Shown: one piece after another, positions 3,590 to 64,000 of the stretch | Layout: every line of letters starts with the position of its first letter | Position numbering within the stretch: the stretch's first letter is position 1 | Assembly: GCA_964582525.1 (NCBI GenBank) | Contig: CAZOSP010000004.1 | Span: 670 to 64,669 of the forward strand | DNA: 64,000 nt | Reading direction: 5' to 3' | Source of the DNA: an uncultured Thiomargarita sp. | Lineage (GTDB): Bacteria > Pseudomonadota > Gammaproteobacteria > Beggiatoales > Beggiatoaceae | Position numbers and translations under genes: made by a program | Notes under the pieces: model-generated | Databases searched by the model: none | Seen by the model: only the letters and a program-made list of their open reading frames with translations | What the model was told of the DNA's origin: nothing

Positions 3590-5680
3590 GTGATACAGGA
3601 CAATGTTATTCGGCTCATCGTCATTGAAGAATCTGCCAATGATGCTGAAGTGATCCTGAATAGTTTGCGCAAAGCACGTTATCCCATTCGTCCCAAACAC
3701 GTTGAAGACGAAGAAGATTTGCAGGAAGCGCTCAGCGGACAAGAATGGGACTTAGTGATAGCTGTCCCGGCTGTTGGCGAACTTACCGCAACGACTGTGT
3801 GCGAAATGGTGAAAGCCTCCAACCAAGATATTCCTATCATCATTTTGTGCCAAAAGTTTACCGCCGAGAGCGTCGGCGAACTGATGGAAGCGGGCGTGCG
3901 CCATGTCATCCCCAATGGCAGCGACATCGCTTTGCAGCACGCAGTGAAAAAAGAACTCAGCGATCTCGCTACGCGGCAAAATCTTCGTCACATCGAACAA
4001 ATGTATCGGCAAAGCCAGCAGCATAACAAAATGTTGCTTTCAACTTCCCGTGATGCCATCAGCTATGTGCATGATGGTATGCACATTCACGCCAATCCCG
4101 CCTACATGGACATGTTTGGCTATGAAACGATGGAAGAATTAGAAGGAATGCCGGTGATGGATTTAGTCGCGCCCGAAGATCATGTTAAATTCAAAGATTT
4201 TATGCGTGAATACATGACCGATGACAACGAAGAAGATCGAGATATGGAATTAATAGGCTTGCGTTTACAAAAAAACAAACGGCATAAATTCCGCTTAAAA
4301 ATGGAAGTCAGTCAAGCGATTTACGAAAATGAAAAATGTATTCAAATCGTTATTCGAGATCAAACAGACTCCAAAGAACTAGAAAAAAAACTCAAAGAAA
4401 AATATGCCAAACTCGATCAGCTAACAGAGCTATACAATCGCCCGCATTTTATTCAATTAGTCGAAAAAGCCATTGCCAAAACAATGGAAACCCATATCCG
4501 CAGCGTCGTGTTGTACGTCACCTTAGATAATTTCTCCGCCATTCGTGATCGAGTCGGTGTCGGCAATAGTGATCCAGTGATTAAACAAACCGCCAAAGTG
4601 CTTAAACAATATGCAGATGAGGTAACGCTGGCACGCTTTGCAGAATATACCTTTACATTTCTACTGCATGACACAGATGTAGCTAAAGCACAAACTTTTG
4701 CTGAAAAAATCCGTAAAGTCGTAGAAACTTGTGTCACAGAATTAGAAGAGCAATCGGTTGTCACAACATGCAGCATTGGTATTGCTCAAGTGCTGGCTTC
4801 GGCAGGTACGCCGCAAAGCGTCTTAAATGACGCGCACACCGCTTGCAAAGCTGCCATGAAAGAAGGCGGTAACCACATTGAAGTCTATAAAGCCACGGTG
4901 AGAAGTGGCAGCACCGGCGACGCAGCCTTGCAAGATGTGGCAAAAATGATTGAAACGGCGATTGAAGAAAACCGCTTTCATCTGGTTTATCAACCCATTG
5001 TCAGTTTGCGTGGTGAAGAAGAAGAAATTTATGAAGTCTTTTTGCGCATGGTGGATGCCGAAGCGAAACCTGTACCGCCGGGGACTTTATTTGCAGCGGC
5101 AGAAAAAGCCAATCTAAGTATTCATTTAGATCAATGGGTATTAAAAGAATCATCTCGTATTCTCAAAGAGCGAGAAAAATCTAAATTTAATACGCACTTT
5201 TTCATTAAATTGTCAGATCAGGCGGTAAAAGATGAAAGTCTGTTGTTATACATCAATAAGCTATTAAAAACAGCGCAGCTTTCAGGCGATCATTTAACCA
5301 TTGAAATTAGTGAAGCAACCGCTATTAGTCAAATTAAACATGCTAAAGTTTTTGCCACCCAGTTAAAACGCATGGGCTGTCGCTCCGCGATTGAGCATTT
5401 TGGCACCGGTCTGAACTCGGAAACCTTATTGAAACACCTGCCGGTTGATTATGTCAAAATTGATTCTTCTTATGCCAAAGGCTTATCAAGTAGCACTGAA
5501 CATCAAAACGCGGTTAATCACATCGTAGAACTCGCGCATCGCTATGAAAAAATGACCATTGCTGAAGCGGTAGAAGATGCGAACAGTCTGGCTGTGTTAT
5601 TTCAATGCGAAGTAGATTTTGCGCAAGGACATTACATTCAAGAACCCATTGATAGCATGGATTATGATTTTTCTGAGTAA
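3590..5680 (+). CDS. Response-regulator receiver - PAS - GGDEF - EAL signalling protein (c-di-GMP turnover)
   Basis: The long ORF is 3299..5680. Its first ~97 codons run through the palindromic repeat. An in-frame GTG at 3590 follows AAGGAG at 3575. Recognisable regions are a REC-like domain (IRLIVIEESANDAEV), a PAS, a GGDEF-like domain (LTELYNRPHF...) and an EAL domain (FHLVYQPIV...EIYEVFLR...). Confidence 0.85.
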   Translation: MIQDNVIRLIVIEESANDAEVILNSLRKARYPIRPKHVEDEEDLQEALSGQEWDLVIAVPAVGELTATTVCEMVKASNQDIPIIILCQKFTAESVGELMEAGVRHVIPNGSDIALQHAVKKELSDLATRQNLRHIEQMYRQSQQHNKMLLSTSRDAISYVHDGMHIHANPAYMDMFGYETMEELEGMPVMDLVAPEDHVKFKDFMREYMTDDNEEDRDMELIGLRLQKNKRHKFRLKMEVSQAIYENEKCIQIVIRDQTDSKELEKKLKEKYAKLDQLTELYNRPHFIQLVEKAIAKTMETHIRSVVLYVTLDNFSAIRDRVGVGNSDPVIKQTAKVLKQYADEVTLARFAEYTFTFLLHDTDVAKAQTFAEKIRKVVETCVTELEEQSVVTTCSIGIAQVLASAGTPQSVLNDAHTACKAAMKEGGNHIEVYKATVRSGSTGDAALQDVAKMIETAIEENRFHLVYQPIVSLRGEEEEIYEVFLRMVDAEAKPVPPGTLFAAAEKANLSIHLDQWVLKESSRILKEREKSKFNTHFFIKLSDQAVKDESLLLYINKLLKTAQLSGDHLTIEISEATAISQIKHAKVFATQLKRMGCRSAIEHFGTGLNSETLLKHLPVDYVKIDSSYAKGLSSSTEHQNAVNHIVELAHRYEKMTIAEAVEDANSLAVLFQCEVDFAQGHYIQEPIDSMDYDFSE

Positions 5681-29402: not shown

Positions 29403-29444
29403 ATCCGGATGTTACGCAAAAGCTTCTTTTGCATGGGGTTTTGA

Positions 29445-29596
29445 AGCATTCGCGTTTGCGCCGCAAAAAGATGTGGCGCGAACCCTACAAGTCTGCCTGA
29501 AACCTGCACTCAGGGACATTTTTAAGTACTTAAAATACAAGCAGTTAGATGAAAATTGATAAAGCAAAAAATGCAGTTTCTGGCAGCTATGAATAT
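29445..29596. repeat. Composite dispersed repeat: REP-like B half-element plus about 105-bp module
   Basis: AGCATTCGCGTTTGCGCCGCAAAAAGATGTGGCGCGAACCCTAC spans 29445..29487. It is followed by CTGCCTGAAACCTGCACTCAGGGACATTTTTAAGTACTTAAAATAC...TTTCTGGCAGCTATGAATAT. Related copies lie at 35934.. and 49246..49497. Confidence 0.8.
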
Positions 29597-29611
29597 CAAT
29601 CTATAGCATTT

Positions 29612-35935: not shown

Positions 35936-36016
35936 CATTCGCGTTCGCGCCGCAAAAAGACGTGGCGCAAACCCTACTGGACTGCCTGAAACCTGAAGCT
36001 CGGGATATTTTTAAGT
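35934..36016. repeat. REP-like B half-element plus the start of the 105-bp module
   Basis: AGCATTCGCGTTCGCGCCGCAAAAAGACGTGGCGCAAACCCTAC is followed by CTGCCTGAAACCTGAAGCTCGGGATATTTTTAAGT. It begins directly at the stop codon of the regulator gene. The module tail TTTCTGGCAGCTATGGGGG reappears at about 36097. Confidence 0.75.
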
Positions 36017-36205: not shown

Positions 36206-37984
36206 ATGACTTCTCTAAATCGCTCCACCTCTCTGTATTTACGCCTGCTCACCTATGTTAAACCTTACTGGCGCGTGTTCGCGCTGGTGATTTTTGCAAT
36301 GGTCATCACTGCCATTACTGAGCCGCTCATTCCCGCCTTGCTTAAACCCTTATTAGACGGCGGCTTTGTCGAAAAAGACCCAGCGGTGATTAAAACCATC
36401 CCGCTGTTGTTAATCATCATCGCCCTGCTGCGCGGCGTGGCAACTTATGTGAGCCAAGTAGGACTGGCTTGGGTTGCCAGCAAAGTGGTCAAAGACCTGC
36501 GCCGCGACTTGTTTGAACGTCTCCTCAGCTTGCCCACTACTACTTTTGACAATACGTCATCAGGCGCGCTACTGTCGAAAGTCACCTACGATGTGAACCG
36601 CGTGATGCTCGCTACTACTGACGCGCTGCTGGTGTTGGTGCGCGACAGCCTCGCGGTGCTGGGACTGCTGGCGTGGATGTTTTACTTAAACTGGCAGCTT
36701 TCGCTGCTGGTGTTTACTATCCTGCCGCTGATTATTGTGATTGTGAAAATCGCCAGCAAGCATCTGCGCCGCGATAATCTTTCCATGCAAACGGCGATGG
36801 GCGATATGACGCGGATTCTCGAAGAGGCTATCAGCGGACATAAGCTGGTCAAGGTGTTTCGTGGACAGGTTTATGAAGCCCAGCGTTTTGAAGATGCCAA
36901 CGGGCGTGTGCAGAAATTTGAAGTGCGCACCAAAGCTGTTTCACATTTGAGCATTTTTCTGGTGCAAATGCTCACCGCCGCCGCGCTAGCAGTGATTATT
37001 TATATCGCCGCACTATTGTCTGAACAGGATCAGCTATCAGTCGGCAGCTTTATTTCTTTGTTCACCGCAATGGGCATGTTATTCGCGCCGATTAAACGTC
37101 TCACCAAAGTCAACGAGCAAATACAGCAAGGCTTAGCAGCCGCGCAGAGCGTCTTTGAACTGATGGATAAAGCCATTGAAACAGACTCAGAGGTCACGCT
37201 TGTTGAAGCCGTAAACACGCGCAGCGCGGTTGTGTTGAGCGGTTCGGTCAGCTTCCAACAGGTGGATTTTTGCTATGCTGGCACAGCGCAAACAGTACTG
37301 CACGACATTAATTTGCACGTGAGCGCGGGGGAGAGCATCGCGCTAGTGGGCACCTCAGGCAGCGGCAAAACGACGCTGGCAAATTTGCTGGCGCGGTTTT
37401 ACGACATTCCACGCGGACACCTATCGTTTGATGGTATTGATATTAATGATTTACCACTGCGCGATTTACGCGATAACCTCGCACTGGTCAGCCAAGATGT
37501 GGTTTTGTTCAACGACACAGTGGCGGCTAATATTGCTTACGGCGGCATGGCGCACAGCTCCCGCGCCGCTATTGAGCAAGCCGCGCAAGCGGCTTATGCA
37601 ATGGATTTTATTCAGGCTATGCCGCAGGGTTTGGATACCATGATTGGCGAGCGCGGCGTGAAGTTGTCGGGCGGACAACGCCAACGCCTGGCTATCGCCC
37701 GTGCTTTGCTCAAGGACGCGCCTATTTTGATTTTTGATGAAGCGACTTCAGCACTGGATACACAAGCCGAACAACAGGTGCAAGCCTCTCTCGAAAAACT
37801 GCAAAAAAATCGCACCACCTTTATCATTGCGCATCGCCTTTCGACGATTGAAAAAGCGGATCGCATTGTGGTGATGGAAAACGGGCGCATTGTTGAAATG
37901 GGCAAGCATCAAGACTTGCTGCAAGCGGGGGGCGCGTATGCCAAGCTATATCAGGCACAACACGCGCTGCAAGATTTTTGTTAA
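36206..37984 (+). CDS. msbA: Lipid A export ATP-binding/permease protein
   Basis: 592 aa. It has a six-TM ABC exporter domain followed by an NBD with Walker A (GTSGSGKTT), the signature LSGGQRQRLAIARA and Walker B (ILIFDEATSALD). The msbA assignment rests on typical length and layout only. Confidence 0.8.
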   Translation: MTSLNRSTSLYLRLLTYVKPYWRVFALVIFAMVITAITEPLIPALLKPLLDGGFVEKDPAVIKTIPLLLIIIALLRGVATYVSQVGLAWVASKVVKDLRRDLFERLLSLPTTTFDNTSSGALLSKVTYDVNRVMLATTDALLVLVRDSLAVLGLLAWMFYLNWQLSLLVFTILPLIIVIVKIASKHLRRDNLSMQTAMGDMTRILEEAISGHKLVKVFRGQVYEAQRFEDANGRVQKFEVRTKAVSHLSIFLVQMLTAAALAVIIYIAALLSEQDQLSVGSFISLFTAMGMLFAPIKRLTKVNEQIQQGLAAAQSVFELMDKAIETDSEVTLVEAVNTRSAVVLSGSVSFQQVDFCYAGTAQTVLHDINLHVSAGESIALVGTSGSGKTTLANLLARFYDIPRGHLSFDGIDINDLPLRDLRDNLALVSQDVVLFNDTVAANIAYGGMAHSSRAAIEQAAQAAYAMDFIQAMPQGLDTMIGERGVKLSGGQRQRLAIARALLKDAPILIFDEATSALDTQAEQQVQASLEKLQKNRTTFIIAHRLSTIEKADRIVVMENGRIVEMGKHQDLLQAGGAYAKLYQAQHALQDFC

Positions 37985-49245: not shown

Positions 49246-49342
49246 GTAGGTGCGCGACATCTTTTCGTCGAAGCACACGGGATGATGGCACGCTGCCGAG
49301 TATTCGCGTTCGCGCCACACAAAGACCTGGCGCAAACCCTAC
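49246..49342. repeat. 97-bp REP-doublet / MITE-like element (A+B halves, GTAGG...CCCTAC termini)
   Basis: The sequence is GTAGGTGCGCGACATCTTTTCGTCGAAGCACACGGGATGATGGCACGCTGCCGAGTATTCGCGTTCGCGCCACACAAAGACCTGGCGCAAACCCTAC. Each half contains a GC-rich hairpin with a TCTTTT-type loop. Other copies lie at 55460 and 55657, with half copies at 29445, 35934, 56891 and 56992. Confidence 0.85.
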
Positions 49343-49395
49343 TGGGCTATTGTTCAGCGACTCTCAAGTTAAAACCACATATTTTATATTGCGCC

Positions 49396-49497
49396 CTGCC
49401 TGAAACTGCTCTCAGAGATATTTTTAAGTACTTAAAATACAGGTAGTTACATCAAATTTGATAAGGCAAAATACACAGTATCTGGCGGCTATGATTA
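49396..49497. repeat. About 105-bp dispersed module (second copy of 29493..29596)
   Basis: CTGCCTGAAACTGCTCTCAGAGATATTTTTAAGTACTTAAAATACAGGTAGTTACATCAAATTTGATAAGGCAAAATACACAGTATCTGGCGGCTATGATTAT is about 80% identical by eye to the copy at 29493. Confidence 0.75.
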
Positions 49498-49589
49498 TAA
49501 ACCCAGCGTGGGGCAATGGCGATTTTTTCGTCCCCGCTTGTCCGGCAAGCGGGTGTCGGACTATTTTAACAGACGAAAAAGATGTCCTT

Positions 49590-49716: not shown

Positions 49717-50427
49717 ATGGCGAGGTTAGCAATGAGTATGATTCATTTTGTCGGCGGAGAAAAGGGCGGCGTGGGGAAATCTGTGCTATCGCGCTTGCTG
49801 TCACAGTATTTTTTGGATAATTCTTTGCACTATGCGGGACTGGATGCGGATCAATCACACCCCACTTTGACCCGTTATTATGAGGATTTCACCCGCCCAC
49901 TCAATTTGGACATGTTTGCCAGCATTGATGAGATTATGGAATTAGCATTGGCGGGCGAGCATCATGTGTTAATTGATTTACCCGCGCAAAGTCAGCGTTT
50001 TTTAGATCATTGGATCGAAGCCAATGACGTGTTAGACCTATGCAGAGAAATGGACATTACGCTGGTATATTGGTATGTGGTTGATGATGGACAGGATTCG
50101 GTGCAGTTATTGGATAATTTTTTGGCAAAATACAACACACTTTTACATTGTGTTGTGGTAAAAAACCAAGGGCGCGGCAGCGATTTTTACGCGCTTGAAA
50201 GCCTTGCTGTGTTGCAAAATGAAAAGCCCCATTTGCAACAGGTGTGTCTCCCCGCATTACATGCAGATACCATGCACAAAATTGATAAACTGAGTGTTAA
50301 TTTCTGGGCGGCGATGAATGTCAAGGACAATCCGTTGGGGCATTTGAGTTTAATGGAACGACAAAGAACCAAAGTCTGGATAAAGCGAATATATGAAACC
50401 TTTAATACTGTTTTTAAGCAACTATAA
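49717..50427 (+). CDS. ParA/MinD-superfamily P-loop ATPase, TraL/MobD-like
   Basis: It has a deviant Walker A (HFVGGEKGGVGKS) and LDADQSH. The overall layout and the C-terminal LMERQRTKVW resemble IncP TraL-type proteins. The start may be the ATG at 49732 or 49738. Confidence 0.7.
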   Translation: MARLAMSMIHFVGGEKGGVGKSVLSRLLSQYFLDNSLHYAGLDADQSHPTLTRYYEDFTRPLNLDMFASIDEIMELALAGEHHVLIDLPAQSQRFLDHWIEANDVLDLCREMDITLVYWYVVDDGQDSVQLLDNFLAKYNTLLHCVVVKNQGRGSDFYALESLAVLQNEKPHLQQVCLPALHADTMHKIDKLSVNFWAAMNVKDNPLGHLSLMERQRTKVWIKRIYETFNTVFKQL

Positions 50428-55346: not shown

Positions 55347-55455
55347 CGATGTAGGGCGGATTAAGGCGCGTCTTTTTGCGTCGTATCCGCCAATTATATG
55401 AAAACGATGTAGGGCGGATTAAGGCGCGTTTTTTTTGCGCCGTATCCGCCAATTA
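55347..55455. repeat. Two tandem 58-bp units, each an E. coli-REP-like palindrome
   Basis: The unit CGATGTAGGGCGGATTAAGGCGCGTCTTTTTGCGTCGTATCCGCCAATTA... occurs twice. GTAGGGCGGAT...ATCCGCC resembles the classical enterobacterial REP (GTAGGCCGGATAAGGCG...CGCATCCGGC). Confidence 0.8.
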
Positions 55456-55849
55456 GTGCGTAGGGTGCGCGACATCTTTTCGTCGCGCACGCGGGATGAT
55501 GGCACGCTGCCAAGCATTCGCGTTCGCGCCACAAAAAGACGTGGCGCAAACCCTACTTTGCTATTAAATCAATCACTGCGAGAGCAGCGCGTTGATCGGA
55601 GTCTTGTTTTAAGACTTGATGAATACGCGCAAACTCTCCCTGCACTGCGGCAGTGCGTAGGGTGCGCGACATCTTTTCGTCGCGCACGCGGGATGATGGC
55701 ACGCTGCCAAGCATTCGCGTTCGCGCCACAAAAAGACGTGGCGCAAACCCTACTTTGCTATTAAATCAATCACTGCGAGAGCAGCGCGTTGATCGGAGTC
55801 TTGTTTTAAGACTTGATGAATACGCGCAAACTCTCCCTGCACTGCGGCA
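55456..55849. repeat. Two tandem 197-bp units (97-bp REP doublet plus about 96 bp of the lpxB 3' coding end)
   Basis: 55456..55652 and 55653..55849 are identical as far as can be read by eye. The ORF-track peptides VRRVRDIFSS...LPALRQ appear twice, in different frames, which fits a 197-nt period. Confidence 0.85.
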
Positions 55850-56970
55850 GTTTTGGCAGGGTTGTCGAGCCAATCCAGCACAGCTTGTCCGAGATTTTCC
55901 GCAGTAGCTTCAGACTGAATAAATTCAGGCACCAAAACCTTGCCAGATAGCAAATTGGGCAAAGAAACCTGTTCAATTTTAACCAAACGTTTCGCCAGCC
56001 AATAGGTCAGCGGCGCGAGTTTGTAGGCGACGACCATCGGACGTTTGAGTAGCGCGGCTTCCAGTGTCGCGGTGCCAGAGGCGAGGATGATGACTTCTGC
56101 GGCTGTCATAGCACTGTGACTGTGTCCGTCCAAGCAGTGCAGCGGTAGGTTTGCGTATTGGCTTGCTTGGGTGTGCTGCATAAAACAGTTTTTTAGTTTT
56201 TCATTGGCTAAAGGGACCAGAAATTCCAGTTCTGGGCTGCGTTGTTGTAGCCATAGCGCGGTGTCTAAAAAGACCCGGCTAAGGCGGCTGACTTCGCTGA
56301 GGCGGCTGCCGGGGAGCAGGGCGATGTAGCCTTTGTTGGCGGCTAAACCGAGTTCAGTACGCGCTGCTGTTGCGTCGCTGTGGGTGGGAATCTGTTGAGC
56401 CAGCGGATGCCCAACAAAGCGCACGGGATGTCCATGTTTTTGGTAAAAAGCAGCCTCAAAAGGAAAAAGAGTCAACATCAAATCACAAGATTGCCGGATA
56501 CCAGCCAAACGTGAAGCGCGCCACGCCCACACGGTGGGACTGACGTAATGAACAGTGGGGATGCCGGCTTGCTTGAGGCGGCGTTCCAGCGGCAAATTAA
56601 AATCAGGCGCATCAATGCCGATAAATACATCAGGGCGGTTATGTAGAAAATGGCGAATGAGGTGATTGTGGCAGCGTTTGAGCGACACGTAGCGTCCTAG
56701 CACTTCAACGATGCCCATGACGGAAAGTAGTTCCATTGGGTAGCGCGTGTTCATGCCGGCTGCCAGCATTTTTTCCCCGCCTATGCCGTCAAATTGTGCG
56801 TTAGGGAAGTGTTGACGTAAAGCGCGGATCAGTCCCGCGCCGAGCAGATCGCCGGACATTTCGCCAGTAACTATGCCGAACTGTAGTGGACTTTGCTGCC
56901 AAGCATTCGCGTTCGCGCCACAAAAAGACGTGGCGCAAACCCTACTCTGCTGTAGTGGAGGCTCAGGCAT
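55750..56970 (-). CDS. lpxB: Lipid-A-disaccharide synthase, with a 23-codon repeat-derived insertion after codon 7
   Basis: The N-terminal motif is [21 protein letters not shown] and the body is GT19. The only usable in-frame start is the ATG at 56970 (MPEPPLQ...). The TAG stop lies inside the CCCTAC terminus of the repeat element. Confidence 0.85.
   Translation of the reverse strand: [406 protein letters not shown]
56891..56949. mobile_element. REP-like B half-element inserted in the lpxB coding sequence, flanked by 10-bp direct repeats
   Basis: CTGTAGTGGA occurs at 56881..56890 and again at 56950..56959. Between them lies CTTTGCTGCCAAGCATTCGCGTTCGCGCCACAAAAAGACGTGGCGCAAACCCTACTCTG. Confidence 0.75.
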
Positions 56971-59900
56971 CGGGTGAAGTTTCCTGCTGGTGTAGGGTGC
57001 GCGACATCTTTTCGTCGCGCACGCGGGATGATGGTGCGCAACCAAGTAGCCGCGCAAAGTTGTGCAAATCATTCTGCATGGCAGCGAGATTGAATAATTG
57101 GGTATTTTGATAGAGTTCTTGCGCCCAATCTAGCACCTGTTGACATTGATACTCTTCTGCTAATGCTTTAATTTTTAAGGCAAAGTCCTCTATGTCATTG
57201 ATTGATGAATAGGCATTGAAAGCTTGTGCGGTGGGCAAGTGGGTGTTTTGCAAAATAGTCAACAGGTCTTCGGGAATCGGCGCGTTTTTGACTTCCGCAC
57301 CTACCTCCGCGGCTCCTGGTTGGGCTATGTCGCTTTGCTCGGTTGGCGCGGGTAAAAATTGTGCCAGCATTTCTAGTAGGGTTTGTTTGCTGACGGGTTT
57401 GCTGAGGTAGCCGTCACACAAGACGCGGATTTCTTCTTCGTCTTCTTTCATCGCCAGGGCGGTGAGGGCGATGACCGGAATGTGGCGCAGTTGTGGGTCA
57501 TTTTTTAATAAGCGGGTGGCAGCATCGCCGTCTAGTATGGGCATTTTCATGTCCATTAATATGAGGTCGGGATGGTGTTGCTTGGCTTGTGCGATGGCTT
57601 GTTCGCCATTTTCTGCTTCTAATAGGGTGAAGGGGTGGGCGGATAGGTAGAATTTTAACAGTTTGCGATTGAGCGGTACGTCGTCGGCTATCAATAGGCT
57701 GGCTGGGGCAAATTGCGTGTGGGCAGGGACGGGTGCGGTTTTATGCTTGTGTGTTTCGGAGGGTCCGTGAACTACTTGCACTTTGTGCAGCATGACGGTG
57801 AAGGTGCTGCCGTCTCCGGGGCGGCTTTGTAGGGCGAGAATGCCGCCCATCACTTCGACGAGACGTTTGCTGATCGCCAGCCCTAGCCCGGTGCCGCCGT
57901 ATTTGGCGTGGCTTTGGTTTTGTTGCTGTTCAAACGCGCCAAATATGCTGGTTTGTTGATCTTTGGGGATGCCGATGCCGGTGTCGGTGACCGAGAAGCT
58001 TAACTGGATATGGTTTTTTTCCGCAGCCAAATAGTCAAACCAGATTTTTAGGCTAATGCCGCCTTGTTCGGTGAATTTGATGGCGTTGCCGATCAAATTG
58101 AGCAGTATCTGACGTACACGGGTTTCGTCAATGAGCAGTTGTTGCGGTAGATCATCGGGAATCTCCAGACTAAAGCTGAGTTGTTTTTCTTGCAATTTGT
58201 GGGTAAAAATTTTGCGCATGTCCTCAAAGAGCGTGCGCAGCTCGGCGGGATAGTATTCGAGTTCGAGCTTGCCGGCTTCGACTTTGGATAGGTCGAGAAT
58301 GTCGTTAATCAGTTTGAGGAGTGATTTGCCGCTGGTTTCAATGGCATGAAGAAATTCTTTGTGGCGTGCTTCGAGTTGGGCATTGAGCAGGATGTCGGTA
58401 AAGCCCAAGATAGCGTTCATCGGTGTGCGGATTTCGTGGCTCATGTTGGCGAGAAATTCGCTTTTAGCGCGGTTGGCTTGTTCCGCTTGGTTTTTCGCTA
58501 GGCGTAATTCGTCTTCAATACGCTTAAGCTCGCTGACATCTTTAGCGATGCTGTTAAAAGCGATGACTTCGCCCTGCTCGTTGAGGGCGGGCTGGATAGT
58601 CCAAAGCATGTAACGGGTTTGATGGTCACGGCTAACTAGGCGGTTAGAAAAATTAATGTTGCCGGGCTTTTGTTGTATCCAGGCGTGCAATGCTTGAAGG
58701 CTTTTTTGCTGATCTTCGGCATGAATAAAGTCAAATAACGAAGTGCCGATCAACGCTTGTGGCGGCACTGCAAACAGAGCTTGGGCGGCGGGATTGACAT
58801 ATAAAAAATCGCCTTTGTTATCGATTTGTGCGACTAGGCTTTCAGTGCCTTCAACCAATATGCGGTATTGTTCTTCGCTTTTATGGAGGGCTGCTTCGGA
58901 TTGTTTGCGTTGTTCGATTTCCCTATTGAGACGCGCTTGCTGGCGGGCTTGCACGGCTTCACGGTAGCGTAAAAATAATTTCCAAACAACTGCGCAAAGG
59001 GCAAATAAATAAGCCATGTATGCCCACCAAGTGCACCAGAAGGGCGGAGCGATAATAATGCGTAAACGCGCATTGACCGGTCCCCAAACGCCTTCGTTAT
59101 TGCTCGCTTTGACTTGAAAAACATAATTGCCGGGCGGCACTTTGGTGAAAAATGCGCGTTGCCGATTTTTGATAGTTTGCCACTCGGAATCAAAACCGAG
59201 CAATCGATAGGCGTACTGATTTTTGTTCGGCTGAATGTAATTTAAGGCGACAAATTTCAAGTTAAAAGAGTTCTGCCAATGCGCCAGCGTGAGCGTGTCG
59301 GTTTCGGAAATGGGGTATTGCAAAGGCGAGTCAGGACTGTTGGGCGTGATGTTTTGCTGAGAAATTTCCAAGTGGGTTAAAATCACCGGCGGAGGGTAAC
59401 GGTTAGTTTTGAAAAAATCCGGAAAAAAGCTATTAAAACCGTTGATGCCGCCAAAAAACAGCTCACCGGTGTGGCTTTTGGCATACGCAGAATTGAAAAT
59501 ATTGCTTTGTAAGCCATCAGCAATATCGTAGTGCTTGAAGGCTTGCGTGGGTTCAGCGTCAGGCGCGAAACGGCTAATCCCTTGAAAGCTGCTCAACCAT
59601 AAATAGCCGTTATCATCTTCAAGCACACCCCGAATAAAATCACTGGCTAAACCTTGATTTTGCAATTCTTTAGGCTGCTCGCGGTAGTGCAGAAAGCGAC
59701 CGCTTGGATAGTCTGCTGAAGCAGTCTCCAACAATTTATTTAAGCCACTGTCGGCAGTGCTGATCCAAATTGTCCCGTCTTGATCTTGCAACACATTGGT
59801 CATGTCATTGCTGCTTAAACTGTCTTTTTGATGGGGACTATGTTGATAGTGTAATGGCGGTTGAGTGCGATCTTTGGCAAAACACAACACGCCGTCTTCC

Positions 59901-61537
59901 AAGGTGCTGACCCACAGACGTTGCTGGCGATCCTCATAAATATCGATAATCGACAGCAGTTGATCAGCCCTAGGCTTTGCAGCTGAGGATTGCTCAGAGG
60001 GGACCCGTTGGGTAAACCCCAGTTGGGTAAACCAAGGCAGAATTTCTTTTTTAATACCATCAAAGAAATACAGACCGTGACGGGTGCCCAGCCATAAAGT
60101 ACCCGCCCGATCTCGATAAATGCTGCGCACATTGGCGATTAAACTGCGCGTATCATCGGGTAGGCTGGAATAGGTGGTAAAGTCATCGCGTTCCGGGTCG
60201 AAGCGATTTAAGTAGCCGCCATCGGTGCCGACCCAAATAGAGCCATCCACATCTTGGTGTAATGCGCGAACCGTGGGGTTTGGCAAAGCCTCCACATAAT
60301 GCGTGACTTGCTCGCGGTTTTGCGTATAACGACTTAAACCCGCTTGCGTACCCACCCATAATTCGCCATCAAGGGAAGGCAGAATGGCTAACACATCGCT
60401 GTTGATGAGGCTGTTATCGTTATTCGGGTGATGCGTATAGTGGTGAAATTGGTTATAACCCGGATCAACGCGATCCAAGCCCTTCTCCGTGCCAACCCAA
60501 ATACTGCCCGCCCGATCCGCGTACAAAGCCAACACCCGATCATCAGCAAGGCTGTTAGGAAGACTGGCATCATGCCGATAATTTTCCCAAGAATTATCTA
60601 GCGGATTAAGACGGTATAAACCCTGCCCATCTGTGCCAATCCACAAACAGCCATCGGCATCGCTGGTCAACGCCCATACCTGAGACAAAGCGTTGAGTTT
60701 ATATTCAACAAACTGATGGTTAGCGACATCAAAATAATAGAGCGCGTGCATAGTCCCAACCCACAGCGTCTTGTTTTTATCTTCATGCAGACTGGTGACA
60801 TTCTGATCGCTTAAATAATGCTCAAAGCGGAAGCCGGTCTCAGTGTCGATTAAGCGATTTAAGCCATTGCCGTCAGTGCCAACCCACAAAAAACCGCGAC
60901 TGTCCCTATAAATGGGCCAAATCGATTCGCCGCTGATGCTGTTTTTGTGCGCATCGGGCAGAAATTGCTCAATGTGTCCGCTGTTGACATGCAGACGGAA
61001 CAAGCCGTCATTAAGGGTGCCGATCCACAACACATTGTCTGCTGCATCGCCGCTTAAAGACCACACAGAAGGATCGCTCAAGCGGCTCATGCCTTCGGAG
61101 AGCAACGGATACCGGATAAAACGATCCCGCTTGCGATCATAGCGATTTAAGCCGTTGCGCGTACCGACCCACAAATCGCCATTCAGCGCATACACGCTAT
61201 ACACCGTATTGTGACTTAAACTATAGGGATGATGAGATTGATGGCGAAATTGGCTAAATTTTTTACCAGGCGTAAAGCTGTCAAAGCGGTTTAAGCCGTC
61301 TTCCGTGCCAACCCAGATAAACCCCTGGCTGTCTTGGAAAATCGCGTATAGGGAGCTATGTGATAAACTGTCATTGCGAGGCGTGAAATGCTCAAACTTA
61401 AGCACAACTTCGGCATTCGCAAAACCCGCGCAGCACAGCAACAGCCACACAGCCGTCAAAGCAAAACGCAAACTCGCCCAGACGGTTTTAGGCAGCTTCA
61501 AGCCATCTGCAACCTGCCGGAACTGCGAGATTTTCAT
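56963..61537 (-). CDS. Giant hybrid sensor histidine kinase (periplasmic beta-propeller/Y_Y_Y sensor, TM, PAS, HisKA, HATPase_c, REC, HPt)
   Basis: The N-terminal part has many two-component-regulator-propeller repeats (LWVGT..GL.R). A TM segment and a PAS domain follow. It has an H-box (FLANMSHEIRTPMNAILGF), a G-box (GTGLGLAISKRL), a REC (LLIADDVPLNR...LILMDMKMPILDG) and a C-terminal HPt-like region. The start is the ATG at 61537 (MKISQF...) or at 61570. Confidence 0.9.
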   Translation of the reverse strand: MKISQFRQVADGLKLPKTVWASLRFALTAVWLLLCCAGFANAEVVLKFEHFTPRNDSLSHSSLYAIFQDSQGFIWVGTEDGLNRFDSFTPGKKFSQFRHQSHHPYSLSHNTVYSVYALNGDLWVGTRNGLNRYDRKRDRFIRYPLLSEGMSRLSDPSVWSLSGDAADNVLWIGTLNDGLFRLHVNSGHIEQFLPDAHKNSISGESIWPIYRDSRGFLWVGTDGNGLNRLIDTETGFRFEHYLSDQNVTSLHEDKNKTLWVGTMHALYYFDVANHQFVEYKLNALSQVWALTSDADGCLWIGTDGQGLYRLNPLDNSWENYRHDASLPNSLADDRVLALYADRAGSIWVGTEKGLDRVDPGYNQFHHYTHHPNNDNSLINSDVLAILPSLDGELWVGTQAGLSRYTQNREQVTHYVEALPNPTVRALHQDVDGSIWVGTDGGYLNRFDPERDDFTTYSSLPDDTRSLIANVRSIYRDRAGTLWLGTRHGLYFFDGIKKEILPWFTQLGFTQRVPSEQSSAAKPRADQLLSIIDIYEDRQQRLWVSTLEDGVLCFAKDRTQPPLHYQHSPHQKDSLSSNDMTNVLQDQDGTIWISTADSGLNKLLETASADYPSGRFLHYREQPKELQNQGLASDFIRGVLEDDNGYLWLSSFQGISRFAPDAEPTQAFKHYDIADGLQSNIFNSAYAKSHTGELFFGGINGFNSFFPDFFKTNRYPPPVILTHLEISQQNITPNSPDSPLQYPISETDTLTLAHWQNSFNLKFVALNYIQPNKNQYAYRLLGFDSEWQTIKNRQRAFFTKVPPGNYVFQVKASNNEGVWGPVNARLRIIIAPPFWCTWWAYMAYLFALCAVVWKLFLRYREAVQARQQARLNREIEQRKQSEAALHKSEEQYRILVEGTESLVAQIDNKGDFLYVNPAAQALFAVPPQALIGTSLFDFIHAEDQQKSLQALHAWIQQKPGNINFSNRLVSRDHQTRYMLWTIQPALNEQGEVIAFNSIAKDVSELKRIEDELRLAKNQAEQANRAKSEFLANMSHEIRTPMNAILGFTDILLNAQLEARHKEFLHAIETSGKSLLKLINDILDLSKVEAGKLELEYYPAELRTLFEDMRKIFTHKLQEKQLSFSLEIPDDLPQQLLIDETRVRQILLNLIGNAIKFTEQGGISLKIWFDYLAAEKNHIQLSFSVTDTGIGIPKDQQTSIFGAFEQQQNQSHAKYGGTGLGLAISKRLVEVMGGILALQSRPGDGSTFTVMLHKVQVVHGPSETHKHKTAPVPAHTQFAPASLLIADDVPLNRKLLKFYLSAHPFTLLEAENGEQAIAQAKQHHPDLILMDMKMPILDGDAATRLLKNDPQLRHIPVIALTALAMKEDEEEIRVLCDGYLSKPVSKQTLLEMLAQFLPAPTEQSDIAQPGAAEVGAEVKNAPIPEDLLTILQNTHLPTAQAFNAYSSINDIEDFALKIKALAEEYQCQQVLDWAQELYQNTQLFNLAAMQNDLHNFARLLGCAPSSRVRDEKMSRTLHQQETSPDA
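56992..57034. repeat. REP-like A half-element inside the 3' end of the sensor-kinase gene
   Basis: The sequence is GTAGGGTGCGCGACATCTTTTCGTCGCGCACGCGGGATGATGG. On the minus strand it encodes ...PSSRVRDEKMSRTL... of the kinase tail. Confidence 0.8.
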
Positions 61538-61568
61538 ACGCACATCATTACCCTTTAGGAACTGATTC

Positions 61569-64000
61569 ATGAATATAAAAAGTCCTTTGATAACTGCCTT
61601 TGTTTTTCTCAGCAGCATTTTATTATCCCCTACCAGTTTTGCCCATGACGCTGCACAGCACGCCTTTTGGCAGGGTGATTATGGGCAAGCCATCCAGCTT
61701 TGGCAAAAAGCCGTCGAAAATTCTACTAACCCGGTCGAACAACTTGACTATCATATTAAAGTTGCCCTCAGTCAGCGGCAATTGGGGGCTTATACTCGCG
61801 CTCAAGAAAGCTTGCAGCAAGCCCGTCAATTATTACAAACCGTCCCTGAAAGCACGCCTGCTTATCCCAGCTTGGCTGCGCAATTTTATAATGAATACAG
61901 CAAGTTAATGCTTTCAAAAGGCAGCCAACACGGGACTGCCGCGCAACAAGCGGTGGCGCAAGCCTTATCCCTTGCCGAAACCGCATCGCAAGCCGACTTA
62001 TACGCGCAGGTACTTAATCAACAAGGTAATTTACAAGGTTTGCTGCTCGACTACGAAGCCGCCCTCAACAGCTATAACGATGCCCTAGAGAGGCTTCCCG
62101 CAACACAACATGAGCTGCGCAGTAAAATTCAAATTAACCGAGCGCACAAAATCTACTTATTGGATGTGGATAATGCCTATCAGCATGACGATCTGCAACA
62201 AGCCTATCAAAATAGCCGCCGCGCAATATTGCAAACGCTGGCTGAGATGCAAGCTTGGCAAGACAGTTACGCACAAATTATGGGCTTGATTCGCCTCGCA
62301 CAATTAGCCGGAGACATTCAGCAACAACTGCCAACCGCCCAGACTGACTTATCGCAAGCCCGCCTGAAAGCCTTGCAAAAAGCCCTGCGTTTAGCCCAAA
62401 ACATCCAACAGCCGAGCGCGCTCACTCACGTCTATTTAGCCCTTGCCGACCTTTACCAACAACACGCGCACACCGCTCAAGCCTTGCGTCTTAACCGCCA
62501 AGCCGTATTTCATGCGCAACAAGCGCGAGACAATAAACTTTTTTATCTCGGATTGCACCAACAAGGACAACTTTTCCAACAACAAGGCGCGATTGACGAG
62601 GCGATCAAAGCCTACCAACAAGCCACTGAAAAACTCACCCCGATTCGCCTACGCGATGCACAAACCGGTTATTGCAATATCCAACAAAGCTTCCGTGAAC
62701 GCATCGCCCCGGTCTATTTTGAACTCGCTGATTTACTGTTACAACAAGCCGCACAAACCGCAGATGTGGCACAAAAACACGCCCTGTTGAAACGCGCCCG
62801 AGACAGTATTGAATCCTTCAAAGGCGCGGAATTACAGGCCTATTATCGAGACGACTGCATCACCCTTCATACCTCCACACCCGCCGACCAACAACTGGAT
62901 GCGCATTCCGTCGTGTTATATCCGATTTCCCTGCCCAATCGACTAGAATTGCTGCTCAGTTTTAATCAGCACATAGAACAAGTGACGGTGCCCGTCAGCC
63001 AACAACAACTCACGCAAACCGCCGCCTTATTTTTATCCCCTCTGCGCAGTCACCCCAACCCAGAATTACAGGAACGCAGCCGTGATTCGCGGGGTGTCAG
63101 TCGCGGCGTGAGTCGCGGCGACAGCGAATCTCTCTACCAAGACCTTTGCGTCCCCCAAGCACGCGGCAGTCTCTCACTGCCCCCCGCCGCCTTACGCTTC
63201 CAACAACCCGCCCAACAACTCTATGACTGGCTCATAGCCCCGTTGCAAAACAGCTTACAACAACACGCCATAGACACCCTCATCATCGCACCGGACGGCG
63301 CATTACGCACCATCCCCTTTGCCGCCCTACGCAATGGGGAACATTTTTTAATCGAAAAATACGCCCTCGCGGTGATTCCCAGCCTCTCCCTAAGCCGTCG
63401 TCAAACACACAGCAAACCAAACCCCTCAAGCATCCTCATAGCAGGTTTATCCGAAGCGCGACACGGCTTTGCCGAAATCCCTTGCGTAGAATACGAAATC
63501 AACAGCCTCCATGAATTACTCAAGCCGCAGCATCAACCCTTGCTCAACCAAAGCTTCCTGAAAGCCAATCTACAGCAGCAATTAACCGACAAGGATTATC
63601 GCTTCGTACACATCGCCACACATGGACAATTCAGTGCCAATCTGGCGCACACCTTCATTCTCACCTACGACCAGACCCTGCCCCTGAACGCCTTAGAAAA
63701 ACTCATGAAATCCTCCAAAGTACGCAAACACCCCATCGAACTGTTGACCTTAAGTGCCTGCGAAACCGCTGCTGGCGATGACAAAGCCGCGCTGGGTTTA
63801 GCCGGTGTCGCCCTAAAAGCGGGTGTTAATAGTGCGCTGGCAAGTCTCTGGCAAGTTGACGACGAAGCCACACCCACCCTTGTTTTAGAATTTTATAAAC
63901 AGCTCATGCAGCACCCAGAACGTGGCAAAGCACGCGCTTTACAACAAGCGCAAAGTAGGCTATTGCAACAACCAGCATTTGCCGCTTACCGGCATCCTTA
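61569..64000 (+). CDS. Secreted TPR-repeat / CHAT-domain (caspase-like) protein, 3' end outside window
   Basis: This ORF is absent from the ORF track because there is no stop before the window end. The frame starting at the ATG at 61569 (MNIKSPLITAFVFLSSILLSPTSFAHD, signal-peptide-like) is open for 810 codons. It has long Q/A-rich TPR-like repeats and then CHAT hallmarks (FVHIATHGQF ... LLTLSACETAAGD ... GLAGVALKAGVNSALASLWQVDD). Confidence 0.85.
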   Translation, partial: MNIKSPLITAFVFLSSILLSPTSFAHDAAQHAFWQGDYGQAIQLWQKAVENSTNPVEQLDYHIKVALSQRQLGAYTRAQESLQQARQLLQTVPESTPAYPSLAAQFYNEYSKLMLSKGSQHGTAAQQAVAQALSLAETASQADLYAQVLNQQGNLQGLLLDYEAALNSYNDALERLPATQHELRSKIQINRAHKIYLLDVDNAYQHDDLQQAYQNSRRAILQTLAEMQAWQDSYAQIMGLIRLAQLAGDIQQQLPTAQTDLSQARLKALQKALRLAQNIQQPSALTHVYLALADLYQQHAHTAQALRLNRQAVFHAQQARDNKLFYLGLHQQGQLFQQQGAIDEAIKAYQQATEKLTPIRLRDAQTGYCNIQQSFRERIAPVYFELADLLLQQAAQTADVAQKHALLKRARDSIESFKGAELQAYYRDDCITLHTSTPADQQLDAHSVVLYPISLPNRLELLLSFNQHIEQVTVPVSQQQLTQTAALFLSPLRSHPNPELQERSRDSRGVSRGVSRGDSESLYQDLCVPQARGSLSLPPAALRFQQPAQQLYDWLIAPLQNSLQQHAIDTLIIAPDGALRTIPFAALRNGEHFLIEKYALAVIPSLSLSRRQTHSKPNPSSILIAGLSEARHGFAEIPCVEYEINSLHELLKPQHQPLLNQSFLKANLQQQLTDKDYRFVHIATHGQFSANLAHTFILTYDQTLPLNALEKLMKSSKVRKHPIELLTLSACETAAGDDKAALGLAGVALKAGVNSALASLWQVDDEATPTLVLEFYKQLMQHPERGKARALQQAQSRLLQQPAFAAYRHP

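Follow-up and report, generated by a model that had tools for sequence, protein, structure and literature searches.

In the 64-kb window analysed here, that is, the whole stretch of 64,000 nucleotides from contig CAZOSP010000004.1 of an uncultured Thiomargarita sp., the lipid-A-disaccharide synthase gene lpxB (55750..56970, minus strand) follows a gene for a hybrid sensor histidine kinase (56963..61618, minus strand), and close to its 5' end it appears to have received a single repetitive extragenic palindrome (REP). With its ATG at 56970 and its stop at 55750-55752 of the minus strand, lpxB specifies 406 amino acids, including 23 that are REP-encoded or duplicated. The product is identical to the NCBI-deposited protein P0001; an exact look-up of the 406-residue sequence returned no record. 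It was assigned through its PF02684 homologues, its match to E. coli LpxB (5W8S) and an AlphaFold2 model, and it shows full-length homology to the PF02684/GT19 lipid-A-disaccharide synthases together with their invariant residues. The kinase comprises 1551 amino acids with Y_Y_Y/Reg_prop, PAS, HisKA, HATPase_c and Response_reg domains, and its last ~30 residues include a peptide encoded by a second REP. In the following, the REP in lpxB is called arm B and the one in the kinase gene arm A, after the two halves of a 97-nt element that is found intact nearby.

The sequence CTGTAGTGGA is present as a direct repeat at 56881..56890 and 56950..56959, and the 59 bp enclosed by the two copies (56891..56949, minus strand) consist of CTTT, REP arm B (56895-56945) and TCTG, recognised as an insert by identity, fold and absence from orthologues. 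The left copy reads TCCACTACAG on the coding strand and falls in lpxB codons 27 (part) to 30 (SPLQ), and the right copy falls in codons 4 (part) to 7 (PPLQ). On the plus strand, the region reads ...GCCGAA CTGTAGTGGA CTTT GCTGCC...CCCTAC TCTG CTGTAGTGGA GGCTCAGGCAT..., with the junction sequences GTGGACTTTGCTGCC, CTCTGCTGTAGTGG and CTCTGCTGTAGTGGAGG; the join expected of an allele without the insert would be ...CCGAACTGTAGTGGAGGCTC... On the minus strand, arm B is a GTAG head followed by a hairpin (GTAG GGTTT GCGCCAC GTCTTTTT GTGGCGC). The 10-bp repeat is exact, as the original prediction had stated, and was found nowhere else in the window; 0.04 matches are expected from shuffled sequences, and two or more were seen in 0 of 100 shuffles. 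The 59 bp as a whole also occur only once. The same prediction had regarded them as a REP-like half-element, and this was borne out by the 51-nt core (56895-56945), which is 100% identical to positions 47-97, one arm, of the two-hairpin 97-nt element at 55460-55556 and 55657-55753. Altogether, 69 nt (23 codons) were added, made up of the 51-nt REP arm, two 4-nt fillers and a 10-nt target duplicate.

The empty site was read from relatives by the orthologue alignment that had been proposed with the original prediction. The closest LpxB proteins are 79, 75, 72 and 71% identical and all lack the 23 residues, with starts such as MPERPLHIGIVAGEMSGD and VSKVPLHIGIV..., and the insert is absent from all 73 aligned homologues as well as from the three closest orthologues at the DNA level (L001, L003 and L004; 79-72% identity). 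The automatic DNA alignment of the junction with these orthologues was too diverged to read, and a codon-wise comparison was used instead. Once the 69 nt are removed, lpxB reads ATG CCT GAG CCT CCA CTA CAG TTC GGC ATA GTT... and aligns codon for codon with L001, L003 and L004, the 5' end of L001 being ATG CCT GAA CGC CCT TTA CAC ATT GGC ATC GTC. Removal of the insert therefore restores the LpxB N-terminus, as had been claimed, and identifies the 10-mer as native sequence that is single-copy in the relatives and duplicated here. The three orthologous loci share the same upstream hybrid histidine kinase, L001 also shows the ATGCCTGA overlap of kinase stop and lpxB start, and no copy of the REP family was found in ~33 kb of the relatives' loci. 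An in-frame palindromic repeat in a conserved open reading frame (ORF), absent from these three orthologues, was found both in lpxB (69 nt) and in the kinase tail (42 nt). To judge from these alignments, the insertion of a single REP unit at lpxB codon 7/8 is apparently real and lineage-specific, and it would most likely stem from the doublet next to the lpxB stop, identical in sequence and 1.2 kb away, if not from another identical copy that was not seen.

Translation of lpxB must still begin at the conserved ATG that overlaps the stop of the upstream kinase gene. MPEPPLQ, taken in the original prediction for the sole start available in frame, is the one that is annotated and conserved, but the ORF stays open further upstream to an ATG at 57072, situated inside the kinase gene. 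In the downstream direction, codon 1 and codon 38 are the only canonical in-frame starts, and since there is none between them, the REP would be translated. Initiation further downstream, with the REP remaining in the 5' untranslated region, was rejected, as starting at codon 38 would remove strand 1 of the fold. The deduced protein matched E. coli LpxB (5W8S) with an E value of 9e-109 over query residues 25-403, residue 3 of 5W8S pairing with query residue 25, and it retained all 67 family-invariant columns in an alignment of 74 LpxB sequences. The AlphaFold2 model obtained with this alignment had a mean pLDDT (predicted local distance difference test score) of 89.7, with values below 50 at residues 4-18 and strand 1 at residues 30-35. 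Among the 73 homologues, the number of residues preceding strand 1 ranges from 0 to 13 (mode 2), with 50 of them beginning just two residues ahead of it, versus 30 residues here. According to the model, LpxB is predicted to bear a disordered N-terminal tail of 30 residues ahead of an intact glycosyltransferase fold, and the insert would in effect be an N-terminal extension or tag that does not disrupt the fold. The insertion may have been tolerated because the N-terminal end of LpxB naturally varies in length, and the consequence of this disordered tail for lpxB itself is probably small. It had been proposed that this is an in-frame insertion in the 5' coding region of lpxB and a rare tolerated one in an essential enzyme. 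The insertion is indeed in frame, the 10-bp native duplication is genuine and every invariant residue is kept; its rarity was overstated, in view of the homologues that start two residues before strand 1, the predicted disordered tag and the published precedents (PMC3733652).

A search with blastn-short across the window located seven loci of the family to which arm B belongs. One full 97-nt doublet, in which arm A, a linker and arm B are arranged tail-to-tail, abuts the lpxB stop (55657..55753, plus strand; fold of -31.3 kcal/mol, z -5.5) and is the probable source of both intragenic arms. A second full doublet (55460..55556, plus strand; 100% identity) lies within a perfect 2 x 197-bp tandem duplication (55455..55848; 100% identity between units), the unit of which comprises the REP doublet and the last ~99 nt of lpxB. 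A third full 97-nt copy is found at 49246-49342 and two arm-B singlets at 29444 and 35934. Apart from the source doublets, the remaining copies in the window are 91-98% identical, as compared to 100% for the lpxB arm B and for arm A. Five of the seven loci are extragenic and two intragenic, and of the extragenic ones, four are located at a stop codon or no more than ~45 nt past it; the copy at 49246 has no firmly placed neighbouring gene end.

In both arms a GTAG tetranucleotide is located directly 5' of an imperfect palindrome, which forms a hairpin with a stem of 8-9 bp (fold z of -4.7 for arm A and -3.7 for arm B). The 97-nt copies at 55460, 55657 and 49246 are inverted two-REP doublets with the ends GTAGGGT...ACCCTAC, whose heads pair and whose arms each retain their own hairpin. 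The element is a GTAG-headed REP doublet resembling REPINs (hairpin-forming doublets of REPs) and BIMEs (bacterial interspersed mosaic elements), and not a classical MITE (miniature inverted-repeat transposable element). GTAG REPs and such doublets have been published (PMC3733652, PMC3116915, PMC3333891), and REPs typically lie just downstream of stop codons (PMC3733652). The claim that the family makes duplications of about 10 bp was not supported: flanking duplications were seen at none of the five other copies and arm A has one of 5 bp only, a single 7-mer being explained by the 197-bp tandem duplication. A 31-mer of arm B was found at one locus in 185,579 species genomes, among which the source genome is not included, namely in contig L005 of an uncultured Thiotrichaceae metagenome-assembled genome (MAG). 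The 22-mer hairpin gave in the JGI metagenomes, where the source genome is likewise not included, one chance hairpin in an unrelated GC-rich contig (L006). Rfam naRNA4 was rejected as the family, its match being sub-threshold (22 bits versus a gathering score of 59.5) and lying over a neighbouring REP type.

Arm A (56992..57034, plus strand; GTAG GG TGCGCGAC ATCTTTTC GTCGCGCA ...) is 100% identical to element positions 1-43 and lies in the C-terminal tail of the kinase. It represents a net gain of 42 nt in frame, with a 5-bp repeat (TGGTG) at 56988-92 and 57032-36, and adds about 14-17 residues (SSRVRDEKMSRTLH), so that the kinase ends in ...NFARLLGCAPSSRVRDEKMSRTLHQQETSPDA here versus ...EFIQMVQEESQDNA in L001. 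The 20 nt past position 43 are still ~65% identical to the element linker, which blurs the exact border of the arm; the 63-nt copy at 56992-57054 is 89% identical as a whole. Arm A and the lpxB arm B stand head-to-head, 46 bp apart, which is opposite to the orientation in the doublet. The 46-nt segment between the two heads (56946..56991, minus strand) is native sequence and contains the overlap of kinase stop and lpxB start (ATGCCTGA), an AGGAA ribosome-binding site and lpxB codons 1-7. That both arms derive from one doublet split by a DNA insertion was rejected, since their order is inverted, with the heads facing inward, and the 46 nt between them are native and conserved. In the minus-strand transcript (56860-57070), the two arms are predicted to pair over ~40 nt, with a 46-nt loop that would hold the Shine-Dalgarno sequence and the AUG of lpxB (-76 kcal/mol versus -65 for shuffles, z -2.5). 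If formed in the mRNA, this REP-pair structure could be a target for double-stranded RNases, or affect translational coupling or mRNA processing at the kinase/lpxB junction.

We consider it likely that lpxB carries a real insertion of a single REP, that the protein would carry it as an N-terminal tail, and that its origin is of REP type and not cut-and-paste. The junctions are informative in this respect. In the source doublet CCCTA is followed by a sequence (CCCTA CTTTGCT ATT) to which both fillers can be matched, CTTT(GCT) on the left and T(C)TG(CT) on the right, and a model composed of target repeat, CTTTGC, a 54-nt unit (TGCC...CCCTACTTTGC) and target reproduces positions 56876-56965 (90 nt) with one mismatch. 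To go by the fillers, the insert looks like arm B in a circular or tandem form, taken a little beyond a single turn. Of its three novel joins, two are located at C|T, namely CTTTGC|TGCC and CT(C)TGC|TGTAG. It has been shown for E. coli TnpA-REP that the enzyme binds GTAG REPs, cleaves at C|T both within the linker and to each side of the inverted REP, and carries out strand transfer (PMC3333891). On the plus strand arm A is the REP and arm B the inverted REP, as the TnpA-REP biochemistry requires.

A candidate series of events can be drawn from these features. A REP-associated tyrosine transposase (RAYT) of the HUH type would bind the GTAG REP (arm A on the plus strand), cut at C|T in the linker and just past the inverted REP (arm B), and release the 54-nt unit TGCC...CCCTACTTTGC, which might then be circularised or multimerised. 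One end of the unit would be joined to the target by strand transfer at AAC|TGTAG (target side AAC|TGTAGTGGA), and the other end would be sealed by repair synthesis re-copying 9-10 nt of the target, giving rise to the direct repeat; the join GTGGA/CTTTGC might be attributed to this repair synthesis or to a template switch. Arm A, its partner in the kinase tail at a distance of 46 bp, may have arisen by a similar process on the other strand. Since kinase and lpxB overlap without intergenic space, selection would have retained only the in-frame outcomes. As far as the junction sequences allow a judgement, we regard such a RAYT-type route as tentative, and a polymerase template switch giving the same product may be entertained with similar reserve. 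More doubtful is the complete scheme in which the single REP arm, and not the doublet, was the copied unit, by C|T excision through a RAYT/HUH enzyme, a 54-nt circular or multimeric single-stranded form, strand transfer with a 10-nt repair duplication and a mirror-image event for arm A. If it were true, the locus would provide sequence-level evidence on how REPs spread, and REP singlets would not always be dead remnants.

Several points weigh against the insertion and origin proposed here. The third join, GTGGA/CTTTGC, is not at C|T, and it is there that the duplication arises. Transposition of the Y1/HUH type is not known to duplicate target sequence. The circle reading rests on two 4-nt fillers (with a rough chance of 1e-3 to 1e-4), and a genomic copy not seen here, if flanked in this way, would account for them just as well. 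Gene conversion, rather than recency, could be behind the 100% identity to the neighbouring doublet, and the nearest empty site comes from genomes only 79% identical at the protein level, which leaves the timing loose. The family sample consists of the seven window loci and one further public copy. No RAYT was detected in the window by tblastn and a motif scan with an approximate E. coli RayT query, which is a weak test. To these has to be added the chance of a mis-assembly or a minority allele, which is dealt with below.

Both arms could have been left at the kinase/lpxB junction in several steps, in which a full doublet, or a doublet duplicated in tandem with its flank, first arose there, the outer arms were later deleted and the in-frame products kept, so that the 10-bp repeat would be a leftover of the duplicated flank. 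A tandem duplication of just this composition exists 1.2 kb away, and such duplications have been described for REPIN clusters (PMC3116915). The order arm B, 46 nt, arm A would correspond to the centre of such an array, with CTGTAGTGGA beginning the duplicated unit. The weakness of the similarity past arm A in the kinase tail (20 nt at ~65%; the 63-nt copy at 89%) speaks against the array, as does the 100% identity to the source that both arms still show. Moreover, four events would be needed (an insertion, a duplication and two precise deletions), and the CTTT filler at the left junction would remain unexplained. We give this succession of steps a small chance.

A slimmer one is given to the possibility that the element is a MITE mobilised by a DDE transposase with staggered cuts ~10 bp apart, the repeat being the target-site duplication typical of its family. 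The perfect 10-bp native duplication lies exactly at the insert borders and the 97-nt element has the inverted ends GTAGGGT...ACCCTAC, as would be expected for a MITE. However, a duplication of fixed length is missing from the family: the five other copies have no flanking repeat of at least 5 bp attributable to insertion, and that of arm A is 5 bp only. The insert contains element positions 47-97 only and has one terminal repeat instead of two; a half-element of this kind offers no substrate to a MITE transposase of the cut-and-paste type. In addition, its 4-nt fillers match the source flank in permuted order, whereas precise transposition would not carry flank, and each arm is an autonomous GTAG-plus-hairpin REP and not a plain inverted terminal repeat. 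A Pfam scan of 40 window ORFs revealed no transposase family among the best 25 of the 73 Pfam families found, ranked by the number of ORFs matched, and the approximate-query RayT tblastn in the 64 kb gave none either. From all this we infer that fixed-stagger transposition of the cut-and-paste type did not take place at lpxB.

The chance of an assembly artefact is slightly less than that of a MITE, and we regard it as unlikely. Identical repeats might have been mis-threaded in an assembly of metagenome type, or the insert might be present in some genome copies only, and a stretch of 1.6 kb contains three repeat copies of 100% identity as well as the perfect 197-bp tandem duplication, whose copy number is hard for short-read assemblers. 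The independent Logan assembly of SRR7048222, a run that carries identical genes, is broken up here; other genes of the window turned up solely in its short contigs, which end at repeats and cannot confirm the junctions. Nevertheless, the 69-nt insert is shorter than a read, so that reads must contain its novel junction k-mers. The frame is kept by the intragenic insertions of 69 and 42 nt alike, an outcome to be expected from random mis-joins in only ~1/9 of cases, and the duplication of native sequence at the borders is exact. It is very improbable that lpxB is decaying as a pseudogene, with another copy elsewhere making it dispensable: REP elements do touch both its ends, which is no direct support, but the 406-codon ORF is intact with all 67 invariant columns of the 74 LpxB sequences and a confident fold model, conservation extends to the start codon and to the overlap that it forms with the kinase stop, and a search of 5.8 billion proteins gave no close paralogue, the next match being 79% identical and from another sample.

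In-frame insertion of a REP or of a Rickettsia palindromic element (RPE) into a housekeeping gene is a known kind of event. In-frame GTAG/CGTC REPs have been documented, many of them at N-termini and encoding ~20-30 residues, and the same applies to Rickettsia RPEs (Di Nocera et al. 2013, PMC3733652). The lpxB insert resembles these cases in being an in-frame palindrome that adds ~20 N-terminal residues to the product of a conserved housekeeping gene, with a host protein that, to judge from the model, is apparently functional. It differs from them in what can be seen, namely the empty site, a 100% identical source copy 1.2 kb away, the 10-bp duplication and, within the neighbouring gene that overlaps lpxB, a partner arm. 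The gene is lpxB and the host Thiotrichales/Beggiatoaceae-like, whereas DNA repair genes are prominent in the published survey (PMC3733652).

With the GTAG REP/REPIN/BIME systems and their RAYT (TnpA-REP) enzymes (PMC3333891, PMC3116915, PMC8266576) the family shares the GTAG 5' of an imperfect palindrome, the inverted hairpin doublet of ~100 nt, copies right after stop codons, a tandem cluster with its flank, partial or rearranged variants, and new joins at C|T. In contrast to those systems, no RAYT gene was located in the 64-kb window and the copy number is known for 64 kb only; a single arm was inserted here, whereas singlets are held to be immobile remnants there, and the target duplication found here is not described for them. 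Bacterial MITEs such as Correia/NEMIS, ERIC and RUP (cf. PMC3733652) are similar in being short, non-coding inverted-repeat elements that can enter ORFs, and one copy here has a flanking duplication. They differ in having, at essentially every copy, a fixed short duplication (often TA), and in being whole elements with two terminal repeats, whereas here one of seven copies shows the 10-bp repeat, and that copy is a half-element. What is unusual at lpxB is that a single arm was inserted rather than left by decay of its partner, the 10-bp target duplication, the permuted junction and the mirror-image partner in an overlapping gene. The mechanism of REP dissemination was still called unresolved in 2021 (PMC8266576). 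Few natural insertions allow both junctions to be read together with the donor copy and the empty site. The lpxB locus offers all of these, and the partner arm in the overlapping upstream gene besides, and can be used to test models of the RAYT or template-switch kind as well as the notion that a single REP is immobile.

The 3' end of lpxB is also in contact with the family. Its stop TAG is supplied by the REP doublet downstream, whose CTAC end contains it as reverse complement (55750-55757), and orthologues extend 0-13 residues past the C-terminal end of LpxB; insertion of the doublet appears to have trimmed and re-terminated the gene. The 197-bp duplication leaves a pseudo-copy of the lpxB 3' end past the real stop, repeated in an ORF at 55553-55729 (minus strand), and its junction shows a 3-nt microhomology (AGT). 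It fits the tandem REPIN clusters including flanking sequence that have been documented (PMC3116915), and the copy number of the unit could be an assembly uncertainty.

In the Thiotrichaceae contig L005, the tail/linker region of the arm-B singlet at 4988-5072 contains 20 nt duplicated in tandem (CAGAACGATGGCACGATGCC x2), and a linker-like GGCAGCGTGCC in opposite orientation lies just beyond the arm-B head, giving another rearranged partial copy. A second GTAG REP type, GTAGGGCGGATTAAGGCGCG(T)nGCG(T/C)CGTATCCGCC, occurs in the window beside the doublets as two direct copies (55351-55391 and 55409-55450) 58 bp apart, and is also present, inverted, in contig L005 (5111-5141). Its stem presumably resembles the E. 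coli REP consensus (GCCGGATGCGGCG...). Finally, a dispersed repeat of ~100 nt (CTGCCTGAAAC..CTCAGrGAyATTTTTAAGTACTTAAAATACA...) follows three of the REP copies, at 29489-29599, 35978-36016 and 49390-49501, the two long copies being 83% identical. It lies upstream of unrelated genes (OmpA-family at 29549, ABC transporter at 36206 and ParA-like at 49717) and may represent either a repeat that bears a promoter or a further small mobile element.

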